The notes beneath the pieces are model-generated. The model was not told the origin of the DNA and ran no database searches. It saw only the letters and a list, made by a program, of their open reading frames with translations. From IMG/VR virus record IMGVR_UViG_3300029374_000071, positions 1-5,955 of that record: a stretch of DNA of 5,955 nucleotides; one strand, given 5' to 3'. The position numbers were made by a program, and so were the translations under genes. The DNA comes from a virus. The stretch's first letter is position 1; every line of letters starts with the position of its first letter. Below are positions 1 to 5,955 of this stretch, one piece after another.

Positions 1-103
1 GTTTCGCGCGTGCGCGCGCAATACCTTAGCATCAATCGATGCGACAGCCCCCGCGTTAGGGGGCGACGTCGCAAGGGGGCCGTTAACGGTAGTTAACGGC
101 CCC
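1..103. repeat. Left copy of the exact 103-nt terminal redundancy, identical to 5853-5955. The simplest reading is a circular genome of about 5,852 nt linearised with overlap.
   Basis: Direct comparison: 1-103 (gtttcgcgcgtgcgcgcgcaatacc...gtagttaacggcccc) matches 5853-5955 base for base. The content between the copies is one full complement of Microviridae genes. Confidence 0.85.
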
Positions 104-104
104 C
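29..104. promoter_or_regulatory. Cluster of three tandem GC-rich hairpins or nested palindromes. It is a candidate ssDNA origin or primosome-assembly-like element, or another cis-acting site.
   Basis: H0 29-42: GCATC-aatc-GATGC. H1: GCCCCC-gcgtta-GGGGGC at 47-64, flanked by GCGAC (41-45) and GTCGC (68-72). GCGACGTCGC at 63-72 is a perfect 10-bp palindrome. H2: a perfect 13-bp stem GGGGGCCGTTAAC (75-87) paired with GTTAACGGCCCCC (92-104) around a 4-nt loop ggta. It contains a nested palindrome CCGTTAACGG. This block is far more GC-rich than the rest of the genome. Confidence 0.5.
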
Positions 105-221
105 ACTCTACACACTCTTATACTCTGCTGCTCTTCTCTTTGGTGTCCCTGTGTTGGGAAACCTTAGCTTTGCGCGGAAGGGCTTTTATTTTGCTTTGTT
201 TGCTCTATCTATTACTTGTTG

Positions 222-236
222 TAGTAGTAGTAGTAG
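222..236. repeat. (TAG)5 trinucleotide microsatellite in the non-coding region.
   Basis: tagtagtagtagtag read directly from the sequence. Confidence 0.9.
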
Positions 237-240
237 GGAC

Positions 241-406
241 TGTTGAAACTGTTGAAAAGTCTAATTTTTAGCGTTGATACGCATATTTATCACCTTTTTT
301 CTTGTTTAAAGTTTTGTTGAAAACTTGTTGAATTGTTGAAAGTTCGTCAAATTGCCCTATTTCTTTGTGCAACTTTTTGTTGAAAACCTGTTGAAACTGT
401 TGAAAA
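241..406. repeat. Iteron array of eight copies of TGTTGAAA(A/C), with one variant TGTTGAAT. It is bounded by identical 18-mer dimer iterons TGTTGAAACTGTTGAAAA at 241-258 and 389-406.
   Basis: Copies at 241, 250, 315, 326 (TGTTGAAT), 334, 378, 389 and 398. The 13-mer TTTTGTTGAAAAC occurs twice, at 312-324 and 375-387. Spacing is 9-11 nt, about one helical turn. The array lies immediately after the VP2 stop at 408-410. Confidence 0.8.
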
Positions 407-407
407 C

Positions 408-1277
408 TTAATTTCCTGTATACGCGTCCATTATTTGATTAGGATTGATTGATGGATATGGTGTGATGTTTTTCCCACCTTTTTTCCAACTGTCTTTAAA
501 AGCTGATGCGGCTTTTCTGCCTGCACCTTTTACTGCGTTGCCCGCTTTATCTCCTGCGTCTCCAAGCTTGTCAAGCAAGTTGTTTGCCGCGTAGCTGTAA
601 TTGCTGACCTGTTTTGCACTTGACTGTGCTAGACTGCTTGCCGCTTCTTCAAAGCTCTTTGCTGAATGGTATTGTTTTGCGCTGGTGCTCTTTTTTGCCA
701 GTTCTAAGTATCTGTTTGCTAGCTCTGCAGTGTTGTTGCCGTACTCATACATAGCAGATACTGCTGCCGCCTGTGCGCTCTGCTGGTTGTAGTGTTGTGT
801 TCCGATGCTTGCGCTTGCTCCGCTTGGTGTTGCTGTAGCACCGTTGTTTGCTGCTAGTATAGGATTGATACCCGCCGCGATCATGTCCTTTACAGTGTCC
901 TGATATGCTGTTCCCCGCATTTCTTTTGCAAAGGCTCTTTCTGCCGCTGCTTCTGCGCTGTTGTACTTCTTTGCGCTTGCTTGGCTGCCTGCGTTCATGA
1001 CATTACTTAGAATTGAGCTTAAGTAGCTTAGCTTGTTTGCGTTGTTTACGCTTCCCTGATTGTTGTATGTTGTGATGCCTGTTGGTGTTCCAATTTGCGT
1101 TGAACCAATTTGCTGTGGCGCTGTTAGGCTTCCGGTTGTCGTTTCGCTTCCGGTTGTCGTTTCTTCTCCGGCTTTTTGACTGCTTTGTGCATTGCTTGTG
1201 TTCGTGTTTTGTATGATGCCTGAGATTAGACTAAGCCCCTGCATTATGTACGGCATCCATGATAAAAGTGTACCCAT
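408..1277 (-). CDS. DNA pilot / minor capsid protein (VP2-like, analogous to phiX174 H).
   Basis: The 289-aa ORF lies directly downstream of the major capsid gene, as in gokushoviruses. Its composition is low-complexity and rich in A/Q/S/G/N/T, typical of microvirus VP2/H pilot proteins. The Shine-Dalgarno GAAAGGAGAAA lies upstream, separated from the ATG by a hairpin. Assignment rests on position and composition, not on a recognised motif. Confidence 0.6.
   Translation of the reverse strand: MGTLLSWMPYIMQGLSLISGIIQNTNTSNAQSSQKAGEETTTGSETTTGSLTAPQQIGSTQIGTPTGITTYNNQGSVNNANKLSYLSSILSNVMNAGSQASAKKYNSAEAAAERAFAKEMRGTAYQDTVKDMIAAGINPILAANNGATATPSGASASIGTQHYNQQSAQAAAVSAMYEYGNNTAELANRYLELAKKSTSAKQYHSAKSFEEAASSLAQSSAKQVSNYSYAANNLLDKLGDAGDKAGNAVKGAGRKAASAFKDSWKKGGKNITPYPSINPNQIMDAYTGN
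1131..1166 (-). repeat. In-frame 18-nt tandem duplication inside VP2, encoding ETTTGS-ETTTGS.
   Basis: tccggttgtcgtttcgct at 1131-1148 and tccggttgtcgtttcttc at 1149-1166 on the plus strand. The protein shows ...GEETTTGSETTTGSLT... Confidence 0.85.
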
Positions 1278-2990: not shown

Positions 2991-3401
2991 TCACTGTTCC
3001 GGTTCGTTCTTCTTCACCTCTTCTTTCTTTTCTTCCTGCTTCGGCTGTTCGGTCTGTTTCAGCTGTTCCAGCGTTTCTGCTGCCGCCTGTGCCTTTTCTT
3101 GCATCGCCACAATGTCTTTAGGAAGGTTTTCCAGCGGCGTGCCTTCGGTGTAAATCGTGCTCTTTGCTTTGATGGAAATATCTCCGGCTTCCAGTCTCGC
3201 GATTGCGCTTGCAAGGTCGTAGCCCTCGCCTGCCTTCTGGATTTTTTCATAGATATTTTCATCTGGCTGTCGGATGTACTCCGTGGTGCCGTTTGCCCGC
3301 TTTACCGCCTTCCATGTCGGTGCCTTTTCGCTTCCGGCTTTGTTTGCCACTCTTTCGGTTGGCATTCCGTAGTAACGTATAAGGACGTTAGGATTTAGCA
3401 T
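2991..3401 (-). CDS. 136-aa highly charged protein immediately upstream of VP1. It may be an internal scaffolding or DNA-binding protein (VP3-like); the function call is tentative.
   Basis: A strong RBS TAAAGGAGAACATCA precedes the ATG at 3401. The start overlaps the stop of the upstream 84-aa ORF by 14 nt. The C-terminus is extremely K/E/Q-rich (EQLKQTEQPKQEEKKEEVKKNEPEQ). The ORF ends 25 nt before the VP1 start. Confidence 0.6.
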   Translation of the reverse strand: MLNPNVLIRYYGMPTERVANKAGSEKAPTWKAVKRANGTTEYIRQPDENIYEKIQKAGEGYDLASAIARLEAGDISIKAKSTIYTEGTPLENLPKDIVAMQEKAQAAAETLEQLKQTEQPKQEEKKEEVKKNEPEQ

Positions 3402-3642
3402 TGATGTTCTCCTTTAAGTCTACTAGACGTGCGATTTGCATTGGTGCTGCGTTGGTCATCGTGCCGTCGTCTGTGTCGAACTCGCCCAGCTCTACCAGGC
3501 TGATATCTTCGATTTCCTGTAGTTTGGAATCGTTTGCTTTCCACTTTGCAGTGCGGATTGCCTGTGCCCGGTTCTGCTGCAAGAACGGGTTGCTGTAGCC
3601 ATTCGTGATTGCATCGTGAAAACTGTAGAATTTCAGTGTCAT
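3388..3642 (-). CDS. 84-aa hypothetical protein, a small phage protein of unknown role.
   Basis: RBS AAAGAGGAATAAAATAT precedes the ATG at 3642. It is co-oriented with, and translationally overlaps, the downstream 136-aa ORF. I do not recognise a motif. Confidence 0.5.
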   Translation of the reverse strand: MTLKFYSFHDAITNGYSNPFLQQNRAQAIRTAKWKANDSKLQEIEDISLVELGEFDTDDGTMTNAAPMQIARLVDLKENINAKS

Positions 3643-3753: not shown

Positions 3754-3906
3754 CTGTTCATCTCCTTTTATTGTTCCATGTGGAATATTACAGCCGGATA
3801 CCGCCCCGGCTTACCTTCGGTCGGACGTTGATATTTTTCGTCCGTTTTGCGGTCTGCGTAAATTTCCGCTGGTCGCCACGGCCTGCGCCGCTCCGATGTG
3901 ACATTT

Positions 3907-4293
3907 TTACACCCCCTTTCTGTAATATCCTTCGCGAACGTCTACGTGAACAAAATTTTTGTAGCATATTACCCCGCCGTAGTTTTTCATGTATTCGCTC
4001 GCGAATTTTGCTATTTCTTTTGGTGATACATCCTTTATCCTGATGTCTGCTGCCATTCCTTTACAATGATAGCTGTTCTTTGATTTTCCTACTTGTGTAT
4101 TCCACCATGGCGTTCTGTAGCCGCTGTTTACAATCACAGGTTTATTGAAGTTATCTCGAATCATTTCCAGTACTTCGAGTAGTTCTTGGCTTAACAGCAG
4201 TTCTTTTGCTCCGTCTTTGCTTGCCATTTCTTCCGCTGTGAAGTATGCTGAATGTATTTTTGTGTTTCTGTTGATGCAGTAGATTTTTCTCAT
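3907..4293 (-). CDS. Peptidase_M15-like (LAS-family zinc metallopeptidase), a putative peptidoglycan-hydrolysing endolysin.
   Basis: The block SGYRTPWWNTQVGKSKNSYHCKGMAADIRI...FVHVDV matches the His / Asp / His zinc-ligand arrangement and SGYR motif of Peptidase_M15_3 / VanY-like enzymes. The track ORF extends to 4323 only through an upstream TTG. The ATG at 4293-4291 has an excellent RBS (GGAAAAAGGAGCAATAGC-ATG), so I take 4293 as the start, giving 128 aa. Confidence 0.75.
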   Translation of the reverse strand: MRKIYCINRNTKIHSAYFTAEEMASKDGAKELLLSQELLEVLEMIRDNFNKPVIVNSGYRTPWWNTQVGKSKNSYHCKGMAADIRIKDVSPKEIAKFASEYMKNYGGVICYKNFVHVDVREGYYRKGV

Positions 4294-4368
4294 GCTATTG
4301 CTCCTTTTTCCGTATTGTACCAAGCAAACTTCTGGTTGTCAACTGGGAGTTTGCTTCTTTCATGTTTT

Positions 4369-4551
4369 TTATTCCTTTTCTGTGAAGTACATTGCCACTT
4401 TTTCTACTTTTTCCAATGAGTATAGGCCCGGGTTTCTTTTTGCGTATGCTTTCGCCTGTTGTTTTGCGTACTTTGGTTCAGCTGAAATCTTGAGCACGGT
4501 TCTTATCGTTCCGTCATCTTCGAAACTTCTGAGTTCATAGTAATGTGTCAT
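4369..4551 (-). CDS. 60-aa hypothetical protein, the first gene downstream of Rep.
   Basis: The ATG at 4551 is preceded by AGAAAGGAAGGCGGTCAAA and by a near-consensus promoter. The product MTHYYELRSFEDDGTIRTVLKISAEPKYAKQQAKAYAKRNPGLYSLEKVEKVAMYFTEKE has no motif I recognise. Confidence 0.5.
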   Translation of the reverse strand: MTHYYELRSFEDDGTIRTVLKISAEPKYAKQQAKAYAKRNPGLYSLEKVEKVAMYFTEKE

Positions 4552-4572: not shown

Positions 4573-4608
4573 GATTATATTCTATCATATTTTTGGGATT
4601 TTTTCAAG
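4573..4608 (-). promoter_or_regulatory. Sigma70-type promoter for the 60-aa ORF and downstream genes.
   Basis: Minus strand: TTGAAA (complement of 4607-4602), then the 17-nt spacer AAATCCCAAAAATATGA, then TAGAAT (complement of 4584-4579) with an upstream TG (extended -10), followed by ATAATCAC. It lies about 25 nt upstream of the ATG at 4551. Confidence 0.5.
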
Positions 4609-4640
4609 TTTTTTTCAAGTTTTTTTCAAGTTTTTTTCTG
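4598..4640. repeat. Three tandem 11-nt repeats TTTTTTTCAAG (minus strand CTTGAAAAAAA). These are phased A-tracts with 11-bp periodicity, each carrying a -35-like TTGAAA.
   Basis: CAAG recurs at 4605, 4616 and 4627 with T7 runs between. The array is flanked by further T/A runs (ctgaaaattttt). Confidence 0.85.
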
Positions 4641-4658
4641 AAAATTTTTCCTAGGATA

Positions 4659-4744
4659 GGAGCGCCGTTAGACTCCCGCCCGCAGGCGCTCCACTTGATA
4701 AGACTGGCTTGCCAGTCAGACTGTCGGGGCGCTCCGTCAGACTT
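4659..4744. repeat. GC-rich block of interleaved inverted and direct repeats immediately downstream of the Rep stop.
   Basis: GGAGCGCC (4659-4666) is the inverse complement of GGCGCTCC, which occurs twice (4685-4692 and 4728-4735). The 16-bp near-palindrome GACTGGCttGCCAGTC is at 4702-4717. AGACT occurs four times (4670, 4701, 4718, 4738). The 13-mers GCGCCGTTAGACT and GCTCCGTCAGACT form a direct-repeat pair. Confidence 0.7.
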
Positions 4745-4773
4745 TGCCGCCACTGCTCACCCTGCTTTATTGG

Positions 4774-5769
4774 CTATAAGGTTTCTTTCGGCTCTCTCCA
4801 TTTCTGTTTTTGCTTGTCTTTTTCCTTTTGTATCTCTAGGTATGTTGAGTACGGAACATTTGTGTTTTGCTCTAAGTTTACAAGGCTTAGCACTGCGTTT
4901 CTTCGTCTTTTGGCTCTTACTGTTCTTAGCTCGTCAGAATGGGCCTTGAAATAGCTTTCAGCGTCTTTGTTGGTATCCTTATCAAGAAGCTTATCAAAGT
5001 ATCTAGGCGGCCTTTTCTGCCGTCCTCCTGCGCATGTGATGTTGTCGGTTTCTAATATTTCGTTCATGTGCTCTTTTAGATACTCTTCTGCGATGCCTTT
5101 TGACATGATTCTAAATTCCGGTTCGCGGCCTTGCATCCAGTATTTTGAGCTCTGCTCTGCTCCGATTGCCTTTTTATTGACGTACTGTGTTACATATGAG
5201 TATGATCCTGGTGCCGCTGGGGAAAAGTCTACGAAGCCTTTTCCCCATATGTTCGTGAGCCATTCGCTTTTAAAGTATGCGTTGCCTTTCTGGTTTTTGT
5301 ACCACACTCCGTCCTCTGGTTTTAGTCCAAAAAAAATTCCGTGGTAGTGTGGCCTTTTTGTTCTGTCTCCATATTCTCCTGCTATGAAGTATTTTATCGG
5401 CTTTTTGTATGCCTTTCTGAGACGTTTTAGAAAAAGTTGTACGTCTCTTTTGCTCACTGTCTGTGATTGGATGCTCTGATAGCCTTTTAGGATTTCGCCA
5501 TAAGGTACGTGTTCCTCGTCATAAGTCATTGTAACGAAAATTACATCATCCCATCTTTTGGCTTCTAGTTCTATTCTCGTTGCCCATTGGTCTGCCATCT
5601 GTTTTCGGCAGTATTCACATTTCCCGCATGGTAACAATGCAAGGTTTCCTTTTTTTACGCCGTCCATGATTGTTTGTTCTAGGTTCTGTTTCTTTAGGTA
5701 CTTTAGACTTCCCCACATGGTTGGTTTTTTTGTGTTCATCTGGAAAACATTCGGATTTGTACATGGCAT
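4774..5769 (-). CDS. Rolling-circle replication initiation protein (Microviridae VP4 / phiX174 gpA family).
   Basis: 331 aa. RCR motif I is FVTMTY, motif II (HUH) is PHYHGIFFG and motif III is YVTQYVNKK, with two tyrosines spaced as in phiX gpA YVAKYVNK. A Cys cluster CGKCEYC is present. The length is typical of gokushovirus VP4. Confidence 0.95.
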   Translation of the reverse strand: MPCTNPNVFQMNTKKPTMWGSLKYLKKQNLEQTIMDGVKKGNLALLPCGKCEYCRKQMADQWATRIELEAKRWDDVIFVTMTYDEEHVPYGEILKGYQSIQSQTVSKRDVQLFLKRLRKAYKKPIKYFIAGEYGDRTKRPHYHGIFFGLKPEDGVWYKNQKGNAYFKSEWLTNIWGKGFVDFSPAAPGSYSYVTQYVNKKAIGAEQSSKYWMQGREPEFRIMSKGIAEEYLKEHMNEILETDNITCAGGRQKRPPRYFDKLLDKDTNKDAESYFKAHSDELRTVRAKRRRNAVLSLVNLEQNTNVPYSTYLEIQKEKDKQKQKWREPKETL

Positions 5770-5773
5770 AGGT

Positions 5774-5806
5774 TTGGCGCAAGTTCACTTGTCTATCTTG
5801 CGCCAA
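5774..5806. promoter_or_regulatory. Perfect 10-bp inverted repeat TTGGCGCAAG-N13-CTTGCGCCAA, ending 4 nt upstream of the Rep ATG.
   Basis: Arms at 5774-5783 and 5797-5806 are exact reverse complements. On the mRNA strand the 3' arm is followed by ACCT-ATG. No Shine-Dalgarno lies between the repeat and the start codon. Confidence 0.6.
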
Positions 5807-5838: not shown

Positions 5839-5872
5839 GCGTGCGCGTGCGCGTTTCGCGCGTGCGCGCGCA
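5839..5872. repeat. Two alternating purine-pyrimidine (Z-DNA-prone) tracts, GCGTGCGCGTGCGCG and CGCGCGTGCGCGCGCA, separated by TTT. The second tract is duplicated at window positions 5-20.
   Basis: Read directly from the sequence. The 10-bp perfect palindrome TGCGCGCGCA is at 11-20 and 5863-5872. Confidence 0.7.
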
Positions 5873-5955
5873 ATACCTTAGCATCAATCGATGCGACAGC
5901 CCCCGCGTTAGGGGGCGACGTCGCAAGGGGGCCGTTAACGGTAGTTAACGGCCCC
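5853..5955. repeat. Right copy of the 103-nt terminal redundancy. Its hairpin and Z-prone elements duplicate those at 1-103.
   Basis: Exact identity to 1-103. Confidence 0.85.

Follow-up and report, generated by a model that had tools for sequence, protein, structure and literature searches.

The stretch of DNA analysed in this study (the window) is the whole 5,955-nucleotide (nt) IMG/VR virus record IMGVR_UViG_3300029374_000071. It holds a circular microvirus genome of 5,852 nt, with window bases 1-103 identical to bases 5853-5955 as terminal overlap, and all of its genes are located on the minus strand. We here describe an element of this genome that resembles a part of bacterial chromosomal replication origins. 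It comprises an array of short direct repeats together with its flank and is located in the non-coding region that extends from the stop codon of the pilot protein gene VP2 (408-1277, minus strand) across the circular junction to the start of the Rep/VP4 gene (4774-5769, minus strand). A first-pass annotation of this DNA had placed the array between VP2 and Rep, which is correct.

The repeat TGTTGAAA occurs in seven exact copies, all of them on the plus strand and starting at positions 241, 250, 315, 334, 378, 389 and 398, while dinucleotide shuffles of the window contained 0.33 copies on average and three at most. Together with TGTTGAAT at 326, which differs by one mismatch, they make up the eight-copy array at 241-406 that had been described before. 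A ninth, degenerate copy, TGTTTAAA at 303, likewise deviates by one mismatch. The repeats bordering the array are identical as annotated, yet they comprise 19 nt (CTGTTGAAACTGTTGAAAA at 240-258 and 388-406) instead of the 18 nt given previously. The copies are grouped in three clusters of two, three and three members with spacings of 9, of 11 and 8, and of 11 and 9, respectively. Since positions 293-332 and 356-395 form a 40-nt repeat with 80% identity, the second and the third cluster represent an internal duplication. All eight copy starts lie within ~0.14 turn of a 10.5-base pair (bp) phase (Rayleigh R = 0.85, P ~0.003 at 10.5 bp and ~0.014 after a scan of periods 10-11). Thus the helical phasing noticed earlier is real, and it is compatible with an oligomer along one face of the helix.

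Both a coding and an RNA function of the array were considered and rejected. According to the list of open reading frames (ORFs) of the window, no ORF of at least 40 amino acids (aa) lies fully inside the array; two short TTG-start ORFs of 25 and 34 aa are present (243-320, plus strand; 268-372, minus strand). No Rfam match was obtained at E <= 1 and the core of the element has no stable single-strand fold. The element is composed of the following parts, given in their order on the plus strand, in which boxes and trios for the initiator protein DnaA are predicted:

195-221, plus strand: AT-rich flank, candidate DNA-unwinding element, with the phage-specific invariant ACTTGTTG (214-221) as its 3' end
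222-236, plus strand: five TAG, putative DnaA-trios (3'-GAT-5' as read on the plus strand), based on the sequence and the published consensus
237-240, plus strand: GGAC, G+C-rich spacer between the trios and the first box
241-258, plus strand: predicted tandem co-oriented DnaA boxes TGTTGAAAC (241-249) and TGTTGAAAA (250-258), the trio-proximal pair
259-302: A+T-rich spacer with a 4-bp mini-hairpin, GCGT-tgat-ACGC, at 271-282
303-342, plus strand: second cluster of putative boxes, TGTTTAAAG (303), TGTTGAAAA (315), TGTTGAATT (326) and TGTTGAAAG (334)
366-406, plus strand: third cluster of putative boxes, the degenerate TGTGCAACT (366), TGTTGAAAA (378), TGTTGAAAC (389) and TGTTGAAAA (398)

TGTTGAAAA is the reverse complement of TTTTCAACA, which has two mismatches to the DnaA box consensus TTATCCACA and one mismatch to the relaxed form TTWTNCACA. 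At the homologous positions of related phages, TGTGGAAAA was found 95 times and the perfect box TGTGGATAA 18 times; the box variants of the relatives tend toward the canonical DnaA box. Within the second cluster, the block TTGTTGAAAACTTGTTGAA is invariant among aligned relatives. Five trios were present in 117 of 120 phage elements, which had been selected by the trio motif. The flank comprises 70% A+T as compared to 54% for the genome (72-75% in relatives; 39-52% further out) and is shorter and less extreme than the flanks of host origins. Between 94 and 118 of 120 relatives retain the pairing of the mini-hairpin, and two positions each show three pair types (outer AT, TA or GC; inner TA, CG or TG). 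Its DNA fold reaches a z of about -2.4, and a small hairpin is found in the equivalent spacer of host origins as well.

This architecture can be compared with the basal unwinding system (BUS) of bacterial origins. A BUS comprises a box with at most two mismatches to TTATCCACA at 0-16 bp from the trios and at least three consecutive NAN trios with the consensus 3'-GAT-5', while the commonest spacer between the stronger box and the trios is 13 bp (PMC8287927). A G+C gap of ~4 bp and, usually, a second, weaker co-oriented box belong to it as well (PMC8287927, PMC6669920). We adopted the published strand convention for trios, referring to the strand on which boxes read TGTGGATAA (PMC8235120, PMC7561715). 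The window then contains a box with two mismatches at 13 bp from the trios (TGTTGAAAA at 250-258), a second box with three mismatches, where up to four are permitted (TGTTGAAAC at 241-249), the gap GGAC at 237-240 and five TAG trios on the plus strand, on the same side and strand as in host dnaA-dnaN spacers. In each of these sequence rules, the 13-bp spacer included, the window agrees with the published BUS. The combined pattern TAGTAGTAG-N2-7-TGTKGAWA was not obtained in any of 200 shuffles. Over the 120 phage elements, the spacer between box and trios is 4 bp long in 63 and 12-13 bp in 24 cases.

In common with the BUS of Bacillus subtilis incC (DnaA-box#6/#7 plus trios) and of Clostridioides difficile oriC2 (PMC6669920, PMC8287927, PMC7561715), the phage element shows two co-oriented boxes, a short G+C spacer, a 3'-GAT-5' trio run next to a candidate AT-rich unwinding region, the 13-bp spacer of the distal box and further phased boxes upstream. 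The trio run of C. difficile, TAGTAGTAATAGTAGTAG-GGTG (reverse complement of the published strand), almost equals that of the phage. In contrast to these chromosomal systems, however, the phage element resides in a 5.85-kb rolling-circle single-stranded DNA (ssDNA) phage, away from dnaA and dnaN. Furthermore, its boxes are unidirectional, a second cluster of the upstream-of-dnaA type is lacking, the phage-specific ACTTGTTG is joined to the trios, and the whole occurs in either orientation relative to the genes.

The closest counterparts were found in bacterial chromosomes. The invariant 19-mer TTGTTGAAAACTTGTTGAA was scanned against 185,579 bacterial and archaeal species genomes (one per species), which led to 90 loci; these were handled as 8-kb blocks and adjacency to dnaA or dnaN was determined by tblastn and Pfam. 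One of them, L184 (CAVKUS010000079.1, 5,739 bp), turned out to be a microvirus genome, complete and belonging to the window's clade (80% identity in VP4, 74% in VP1); its presence in a 'Bacteroides sp. CAG:545' bin is probably a binning artefact and no host evidence. Microvirus genes are absent from the remaining 89 loci. At 15 of the 90 loci dnaA and/or dnaN adjoin, and most of these belong to Oscillospiraceae, Ruminococcus, Acutalibacteraceae and unclassified Clostridia metagenome-assembled genomes (MAGs), while two Desulfobacterales MAGs and one Bacteroidales MAG (dnaN ~2 kb off) are exceptions. For L133, L155 and L208, Pfam identified Bac_DnaA and DNA_pol3_beta (beta clamp) on the flanking genes. 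In host dnaA-dnaN spacers TGTTGAAA occurs 10-26 times within 0.4-1.3 kb, compared to 0-6 times in the other 3-7.6 kb, and in those of gut Oscillospiraceae and Ruminococcus it is clustered 17- to 26-fold. At L137 it is interleaved with TTTTCCACA boxes. Besides the repeat, phage and hosts have the module (TAG)5-GGnn-TGTTGAAAx-TGTTGAAAA in common almost to the base, as given here by trios, spacer, first and second box:

Window: (TAG)5, GGAC, TGTTGAAAC, TGTTGAAAA
L131: (TAG)5, GGTA, TGTTGAAAC, TGTGGAAAA
L208: (TAG)5, GGGG, TGTTGAAAG, TGTTGAAAA
L215: (TAG)5, GGGC, TGTTGAAAG, TGTTGAAAA
L155: (TAG)5, GAG, TGTTGAAAG, TGTTGAAAA

This trio-proximal module is 92-97% identical between phage and host over 36-39 nt and is followed, in both, by a spacer of 45-60 nt with a small hairpin and then by a three-box cluster. 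Since the order in the hosts is dnaA, boxes, trios, AT-rich region, dnaN, which is the same in B. subtilis, the relative orientation of boxes and trios is confirmed empirically. Given the clusters of TGTTGAAA and the near-identical module in host spacers, we take TGTTGAAAA to be the DnaA box used by these bacteria.

The 19-mer occurs in other settings as well. In Mesoaciditoga and Athalassotoga (Thermotogota; L134, L136, L140, L166, L188 and L207), trios, TGTTGAAAT, TGTTGAAAA and the three-box layout were observed next to groEL and not next to dnaA; this groEL-side locus is presumably their origin. About 12 Collinsella loci comprise 3-4 TGTTGAAAA/TGTTGATAA boxes in an apparent mobile-element context.

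Based on this comparison, we consider the region ~195-406, with a probability of about 0.72, to be a phage-borne copy of the oriC unwinding module for host DnaA, the host likely being a gut member of the Oscillospiraceae or of Ruminococcus. The phage element would then be a copy of the unwinding half of the origin of these bacteria. The same word and the same layout in dnaA-dnaN spacers without phage genes point to host DnaA rather than to phage Rep. Consequently, the earlier suggestion of sites for an initiator holds as far as the phased copies in an origin-like element are concerned, while the initiator is likely host DnaA and not Rep. Nevertheless, the element is an oriC mimic and no true oriC: a bacterial oriC proper is chromosomal and located beside dnaA or dnaN, and neither gene is among those of the window, which encodes VP1, VP2, VP3, VP4, VP5 and an M15 peptidase.

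From the sequence architecture, the near-identity to host origins, the conservation and the strand-independent placement obtained here, we infer DnaA binding, unwinding and the later steps as follows. The site of action would be the double-stranded replicative form, where DnaA-ATP would fill the 8-10 boxes (TGTTGAAAA = TTTTCAACA), which share one orientation and a helical phase. From 241-258, DnaA would polymerise over GGAC onto the plus-strand TAG trios at 222-236, and the AT-rich flank at 195-221 would open, on the side toward the putative Rep hairpin origin at 5774-5806. The opened DNA could permit loading of the host helicase and replisome and thus a theta-type, plasmid-like, DnaA-timed replication of the replicative form. 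Alternatively or additionally, a helicase travelling toward the hairpin might supply single-stranded DNA to VP4.

Another host protein acting at origins might bind the array instead, for example the sporulation regulator Spo0A. Its box, TGTCGAA, is one mismatch away from TGTTGAA, in B. subtilis Spo0A boxes overlap DnaA boxes at oriC, and many Oscillospirales form spores. However, in the relatives the copies change toward the DnaA boxes TGTGGAAAA and TGTGGATAA and not toward TGTCGAA, and trios and spacing are DnaA-specific features. We regard such a protein as very unlikely.

The host DnaA module is not confined to the window. A GenBank phage search with window positions 100-480 yielded 33 gokushovirus records from the faeces of human, pig, monkey, mink and raccoon, with 71-87% identity over ~200 nt (~206-415). 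The comparison of this non-coding region among related microviruses, as proposed in the first-pass annotation, thus reveals conserved repeats. In megablast, the element was the sole stretch of similarity to several of those records. An alignment of 11 records starts with an invariant 5' block, ACTTGTTGTAG-n-AGTAGTAGTAG, which is followed by box clusters with variable spacers between them. The 23-mer ACTTGTTGTAGnAGTAGTAGTAG matched at least 119 complete IMG/VR microvirus genomes; among the matches listed, those outside the window's clade possess VP1 and VP4 proteins that are only 38-48% and 31-44% identical to those of the window, respectively. Altogether, the element (~200-410) is present in more than 150 gokushovirus genomes, at two positions and in both orientations, and three types can be distinguished among the matches listed:

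Type 1 (the window's clade), 28 genomes: TGTTGAAA antisense to the genes, between VP2 and VP4
Type 2, 88 genomes: TGTTGAAA in gene sense, directly downstream of VP4
Type 3, 2 genomes: TGTTGAAA antisense to the genes, downstream of VP4

The AT-rich side of the element faces the nick hairpin described below in 116 of 118 genomes. In a sample of 72 additional genomes, chosen solely by VP1 similarity, the array was confined to the window's clade. Both orientations relative to genes and hairpin, together with the lack of a single-strand fold, fit a module that acts on duplex DNA independent of the strand.

This distribution bears on two further explanations. First, the element might be a functionless passenger, either a recombined piece of a host origin or an assembly chimera, as its core is 92-97% identical to host origin segments. 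Yet it was recovered from more than 150 independent assemblies (humans, pigs, monkey, mink, raccoon) and three divergent phage clades, is more conserved than the flanking genes and is always located in the replication region. We thus give this explanation hardly any credence. Second, the TTGAAA hexamers might act as an array of -35 elements for transcription that, in the window, would run antisense to VP2. TTGAAA is a near-consensus -35 hexamer, and a different TTGAAA repeat in the second non-coding region sits in a good promoter (4607-4579, minus strand). However, none of the copies in 241-406 is followed by a -10 partner on either strand, sigma-70-type promoters were not found within the array, its orientation relative to the genes flips between clades and all window genes lie on the other strand. 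A promoter array is therefore scarcely plausible.

The first-pass annotation had proposed, among other options, that the repeats could be iterons for VP4, with the array being the (+)-strand origin or a Rep-binding enhancer. The same non-coding region has these further features:

5774-5806, plus strand: perfect 10-bp hairpin, 5 nt from the VP4 start codon, whose loop TTCACTTGTCTAT (5784-5796) contains a phiX/pC194-like CTTG
5839-5868 (5853-5868 equals 1-16; ~1-20 in unit coordinates): alternating GC/GT palindrome over the circular junction, 15-bp stem with G-T wobbles on the plus strand
41-72 and 75-104: two G+C-rich hairpins, one of them a perfect 13-bp stem

The DNA fold of the hairpin at 5774-5806 has -12.7 kcal/mol and a z of -5.2. 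It is found in all 28 genomes of the window's clade, 28-259 nt from the trio block, and all type 2 and type 3 genomes possess a CTTG-loop hairpin near the element as well, with the loop motif always antisense to the genes. In types 1 and 3 the DnaA-like element and the loop motif share a strand, while in type 2 they lie on opposite strands. Within the sample chosen by VP1, nearly every gokushovirus possesses a single long and perfect hairpin that carries a CTTG(A/T)T motif in its loop. The loop reads TCTACTTGAT in Chp2, CTACTTGTTGTAA in phiMH2K and TTACTTGTTATA in SpV4, and the motif is YCTCTTGAT in many uncultivated genomes. Apart from the window, such hairpins are located at 2904-2941 (L220), 3296-3335 (L221) and 512-544 (L222), and at loci L223-L294. 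The origin of phiX174 is a 30-bp site within gene A and lacks repeats. The window shares a hairpin with other gokushoviruses and the phiX174-like CTTG, while the TGTTGAAA array does not belong to this hairpin, and most gokushoviruses with such a hairpin lack the array. For the VP4 nick site, the hairpin is the better candidate. The nick context of the phiX174 type, CAACTTG^ATA, does not occur in the array; CTTG motifs are located outside of it (214-224 and the loop at 5784-5796) on the plus strand. The similarity of CAACAAGTTTTCAAC on the coding strand to CAACTTG, which had been pointed out before, dissolves into the junction of two boxes. A further hairpin inside the VP4 gene (~5419-5447) was rejected as coding-strand origin, as its conservation does not extend beyond the closest relatives.

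Rep origins typically carry direct repeats close to the nick site, and array and candidate nick hairpin share one non-coding region, 28-259 nt apart within the clade. In addition, the array abuts ACTTGTTGTAG, a motif of the ori-like hairpin loops of phiMH2K and SpV4. In this respect it resembles the iterons of circular Rep-encoding single-stranded (CRESS) DNA viruses, geminiviruses and iteron plasmids, which are likewise short direct repeats near a nick hairpin. However, such iterons change with their cognate Rep, while the repeats of the window stay constant over divergent Reps and occur in bacterial chromosomes too. Iterons that serve one particular Rep should co-vary with it, and this argues against the idea: the array is common to phages whose VP4 proteins are only 31-44% identical, and the identical word and layout are found in bacterial chromosomes without Rep. 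Moreover, hairpin-bearing gokushoviruses without the array are common, the array is located on either strand relative to the hairpin motif, and both the TAG run and the 13-bp geometry would be left without a role. A Rep-specific origin or enhancer is thus disfavored, and we judge VP4 iterons to be quite improbable.

Nevertheless, a minor part of the element might contact VP4. ACTTGTTGTAG at 214-224 (plus strand), which abuts the trios, is invariant in 11 of 11 independently found relatives and missing at the equivalent place in host origins. The loop of phiMH2K carries an identical motif (CTACTTGTTGTAA), and that of SpV4 a nearly identical one (TTACTTGTTATA). Given this likeness of ACTTGTTG/ACTTGTTGTAG to both loops, VP4 may make a second contact here, with ACTTGTTGTAG as an additional recognition site. 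That ACTTGTTGTAG is the only nick site for Rep, in contrast, has become less likely, because all three types comprise a separate CTTG-loop hairpin and, in type 2, ACTTGTTGTAG and the hairpin motif are found on opposite strands.

The G+C-rich palindromes at 1-104 separate the nick hairpin from the DnaA-like module, and in genomes of types 2 and 3, similar palindromic blocks lie beside the element. A barrier to unwinding is one possible role, while a complementary-strand origin would be a guess. The asymmetry of G-T wobbles in the alternating-GC palindromes is probably a by-product of base skew.

The polarity of the hairpin may hint at the packaged strand. In the sample chosen by VP1, the strand of the loop motif predicts base skew. 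The motif lies on the coding strand in 17 genomes (including Chp2), whose VP1 four-fold sites comprise T at 0.53 and A at 0.12, and on the antisense strand in 53 genomes (including the window's clade) with A at 0.38 and T at 0.13. The A-rich phiMH2K is an exception to the former group. The virion strand of ssDNA phages is T-rich. Where the motif is antisense to the genes, the T-rich skew lies on that strand as well. Since the skew follows loop polarity, these data suggest that clades with an antisense motif may package the strand complementary to their mRNAs. With few clades, however, few independent events underlie this pattern. If the hairpin arms recombined with each other, the loop would be inverted. 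The orientation of the element was rejected as determinant of the packaged strand, as base skew follows the genes and not the element.

Several points weigh against a host DnaA unwinding module. DnaA binding to TTTTCAACA is deduced from genomic context alone, and four of the eight copies (ending with C, G or T) have three mismatches to the Escherichia coli consensus. Of the 120 phage elements, 31 lack a box with at most two mismatches at up to 16 bp from the trios and thus fail the strict BUS rule despite the three-mismatch boxes there. The AT-rich flank is short, with only ~70% A+T, and the invariance of ACTTGTTG beside the trios is not accounted for by DnaA. Furthermore, a Firmicutes origin is usually bipartite with a second cluster upstream of dnaA, while the phage carries only the dnaA-dnaN type half, so that it is uncertain whether the element could fire on its own. 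Rolling-circle phages are not known to require DnaA, and the host assignment is based on box type and not on CRISPR or prophage evidence. Finally, the data do not separate unwinding or replication from mere titration or regulation by DnaA.

In the latter scenario, the array would serve as a decoy or sensor that binds DnaA without firing. Copies of the replicative form would titrate DnaA and block or retime host initiation, or DnaA occupancy would tune the transcription of neighbouring phage genes. The same box evidence applies here, only half of a typical bipartite Firmicute origin is present, and transcription units border the element on both sides, with VP4 upstream of it in the 88 type 2 genomes. 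However, a decoy needs boxes only, yet trios, spacer length and AT-rich flank are the best-conserved parts, and the trio-box geometry matches working origins to the base pair. In addition, no promoter-like site was found in or beside the window array. We consider a decoy unlikely and favor the unwinding module for host DnaA.

Mobile replicons that recruit host DnaA beside their own initiator are represented by P1 oriR, pSC101, F, R6K and RK2. These replicate by the theta mode with an iteron-binding Rep, while the initiator of the window is a HUH nickase. To our knowledge, they comprise one to few boxes beside the Rep iterons and no DnaA-trio module. In the literature searched, nothing linked Microviridae or Gokushovirinae to DnaA boxes, DnaA-trios, oriC-like elements or antisense packaging. 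Thus, as far as checked, the combination of DnaA box and trios is known as such, while a conserved movable cassette of this kind in a rolling-circle ssDNA phage is new.

The remaining genes of the window are, all on the minus strand:

4369-4551: 60-aa ORF
3907-4323: M15 peptidase
3788-3967: basic 59-aa protein
3388-3642: VP5
2991-3401: scaffold-like protein
1316-2965: major capsid protein VP1

The endolysin-like M15 peptidase gene was horizontally acquired; such genes are already known from some gut Microviridae (PMC3394797). VP2 contains an internal 18-nt tandem repeat, GCTTCCGGTTGTCGTTTC x2.3 at 1128-1171, which codes for the repeated peptide ETTTGS. In the other non-coding region, a second tandem array is present, TTTTTTCAAGT x3.6 at 4599-4638. 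On the gene strand, the last TTGAAA of this array forms the -35 of a strong promoter-like site, TTGAAA-17-TGnTAGAAT (4579-4607, minus strand), upstream of the 60-aa ORF. The array has TTGAAAA in common with the DnaA-like boxes and is probably unrelated. The block at 4622-4777 is G+C-rich and non-coding and comprises the inverted repeats GGAGCGCC/GGCGCTCC and GACTGG-cttg-CCAGTC, GTCAGACT in repeated copies, and a CCACTTGATAAG motif. The pig-faeces microviruses MG945388 and MG945382 match this block with 88-90% identity and have nothing else in common with the window at that stringency. The block thus resembles a further movable non-coding module.

According to the common view, rolling-circle ssDNA phages require only a HUH Rep and elongation factors of the host. 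With a conserved chromosome-type DnaA module, phage and host replication would also be linked at the level of the initiator. The complete scenario remains tentative, and we would rather doubt than assume that all of it applies: in a large group of gut gokushoviruses, a working DnaA module beside the rolling-circle origin that opens the replicative form in a cell-cycle-linked, perhaps minichromosome-like manner, is passed as a cassette between lineages, is adapted to Oscillospirales hosts and is combined with antisense packaging. If true, these 'lytic' ssDNA phages would possess a plasmid-like persistent state, and the box type TTTTCAACA would mark their host as Oscillospirales. Microviridae persist in the gut for a long time, which a DnaA module could account for. 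Besides, the unusual DnaA box variant would provide a sequence-based host prediction for a large uncultivated group, and comparing hairpin polarity with base skew offers a simple computational test of the packaged strand in uncultivated microviruses. With ~200 bp, the element would represent a natural, minimal, one-sided origin for tests of the BUS model, and it would imply that DnaA-trio modules can be mobile.

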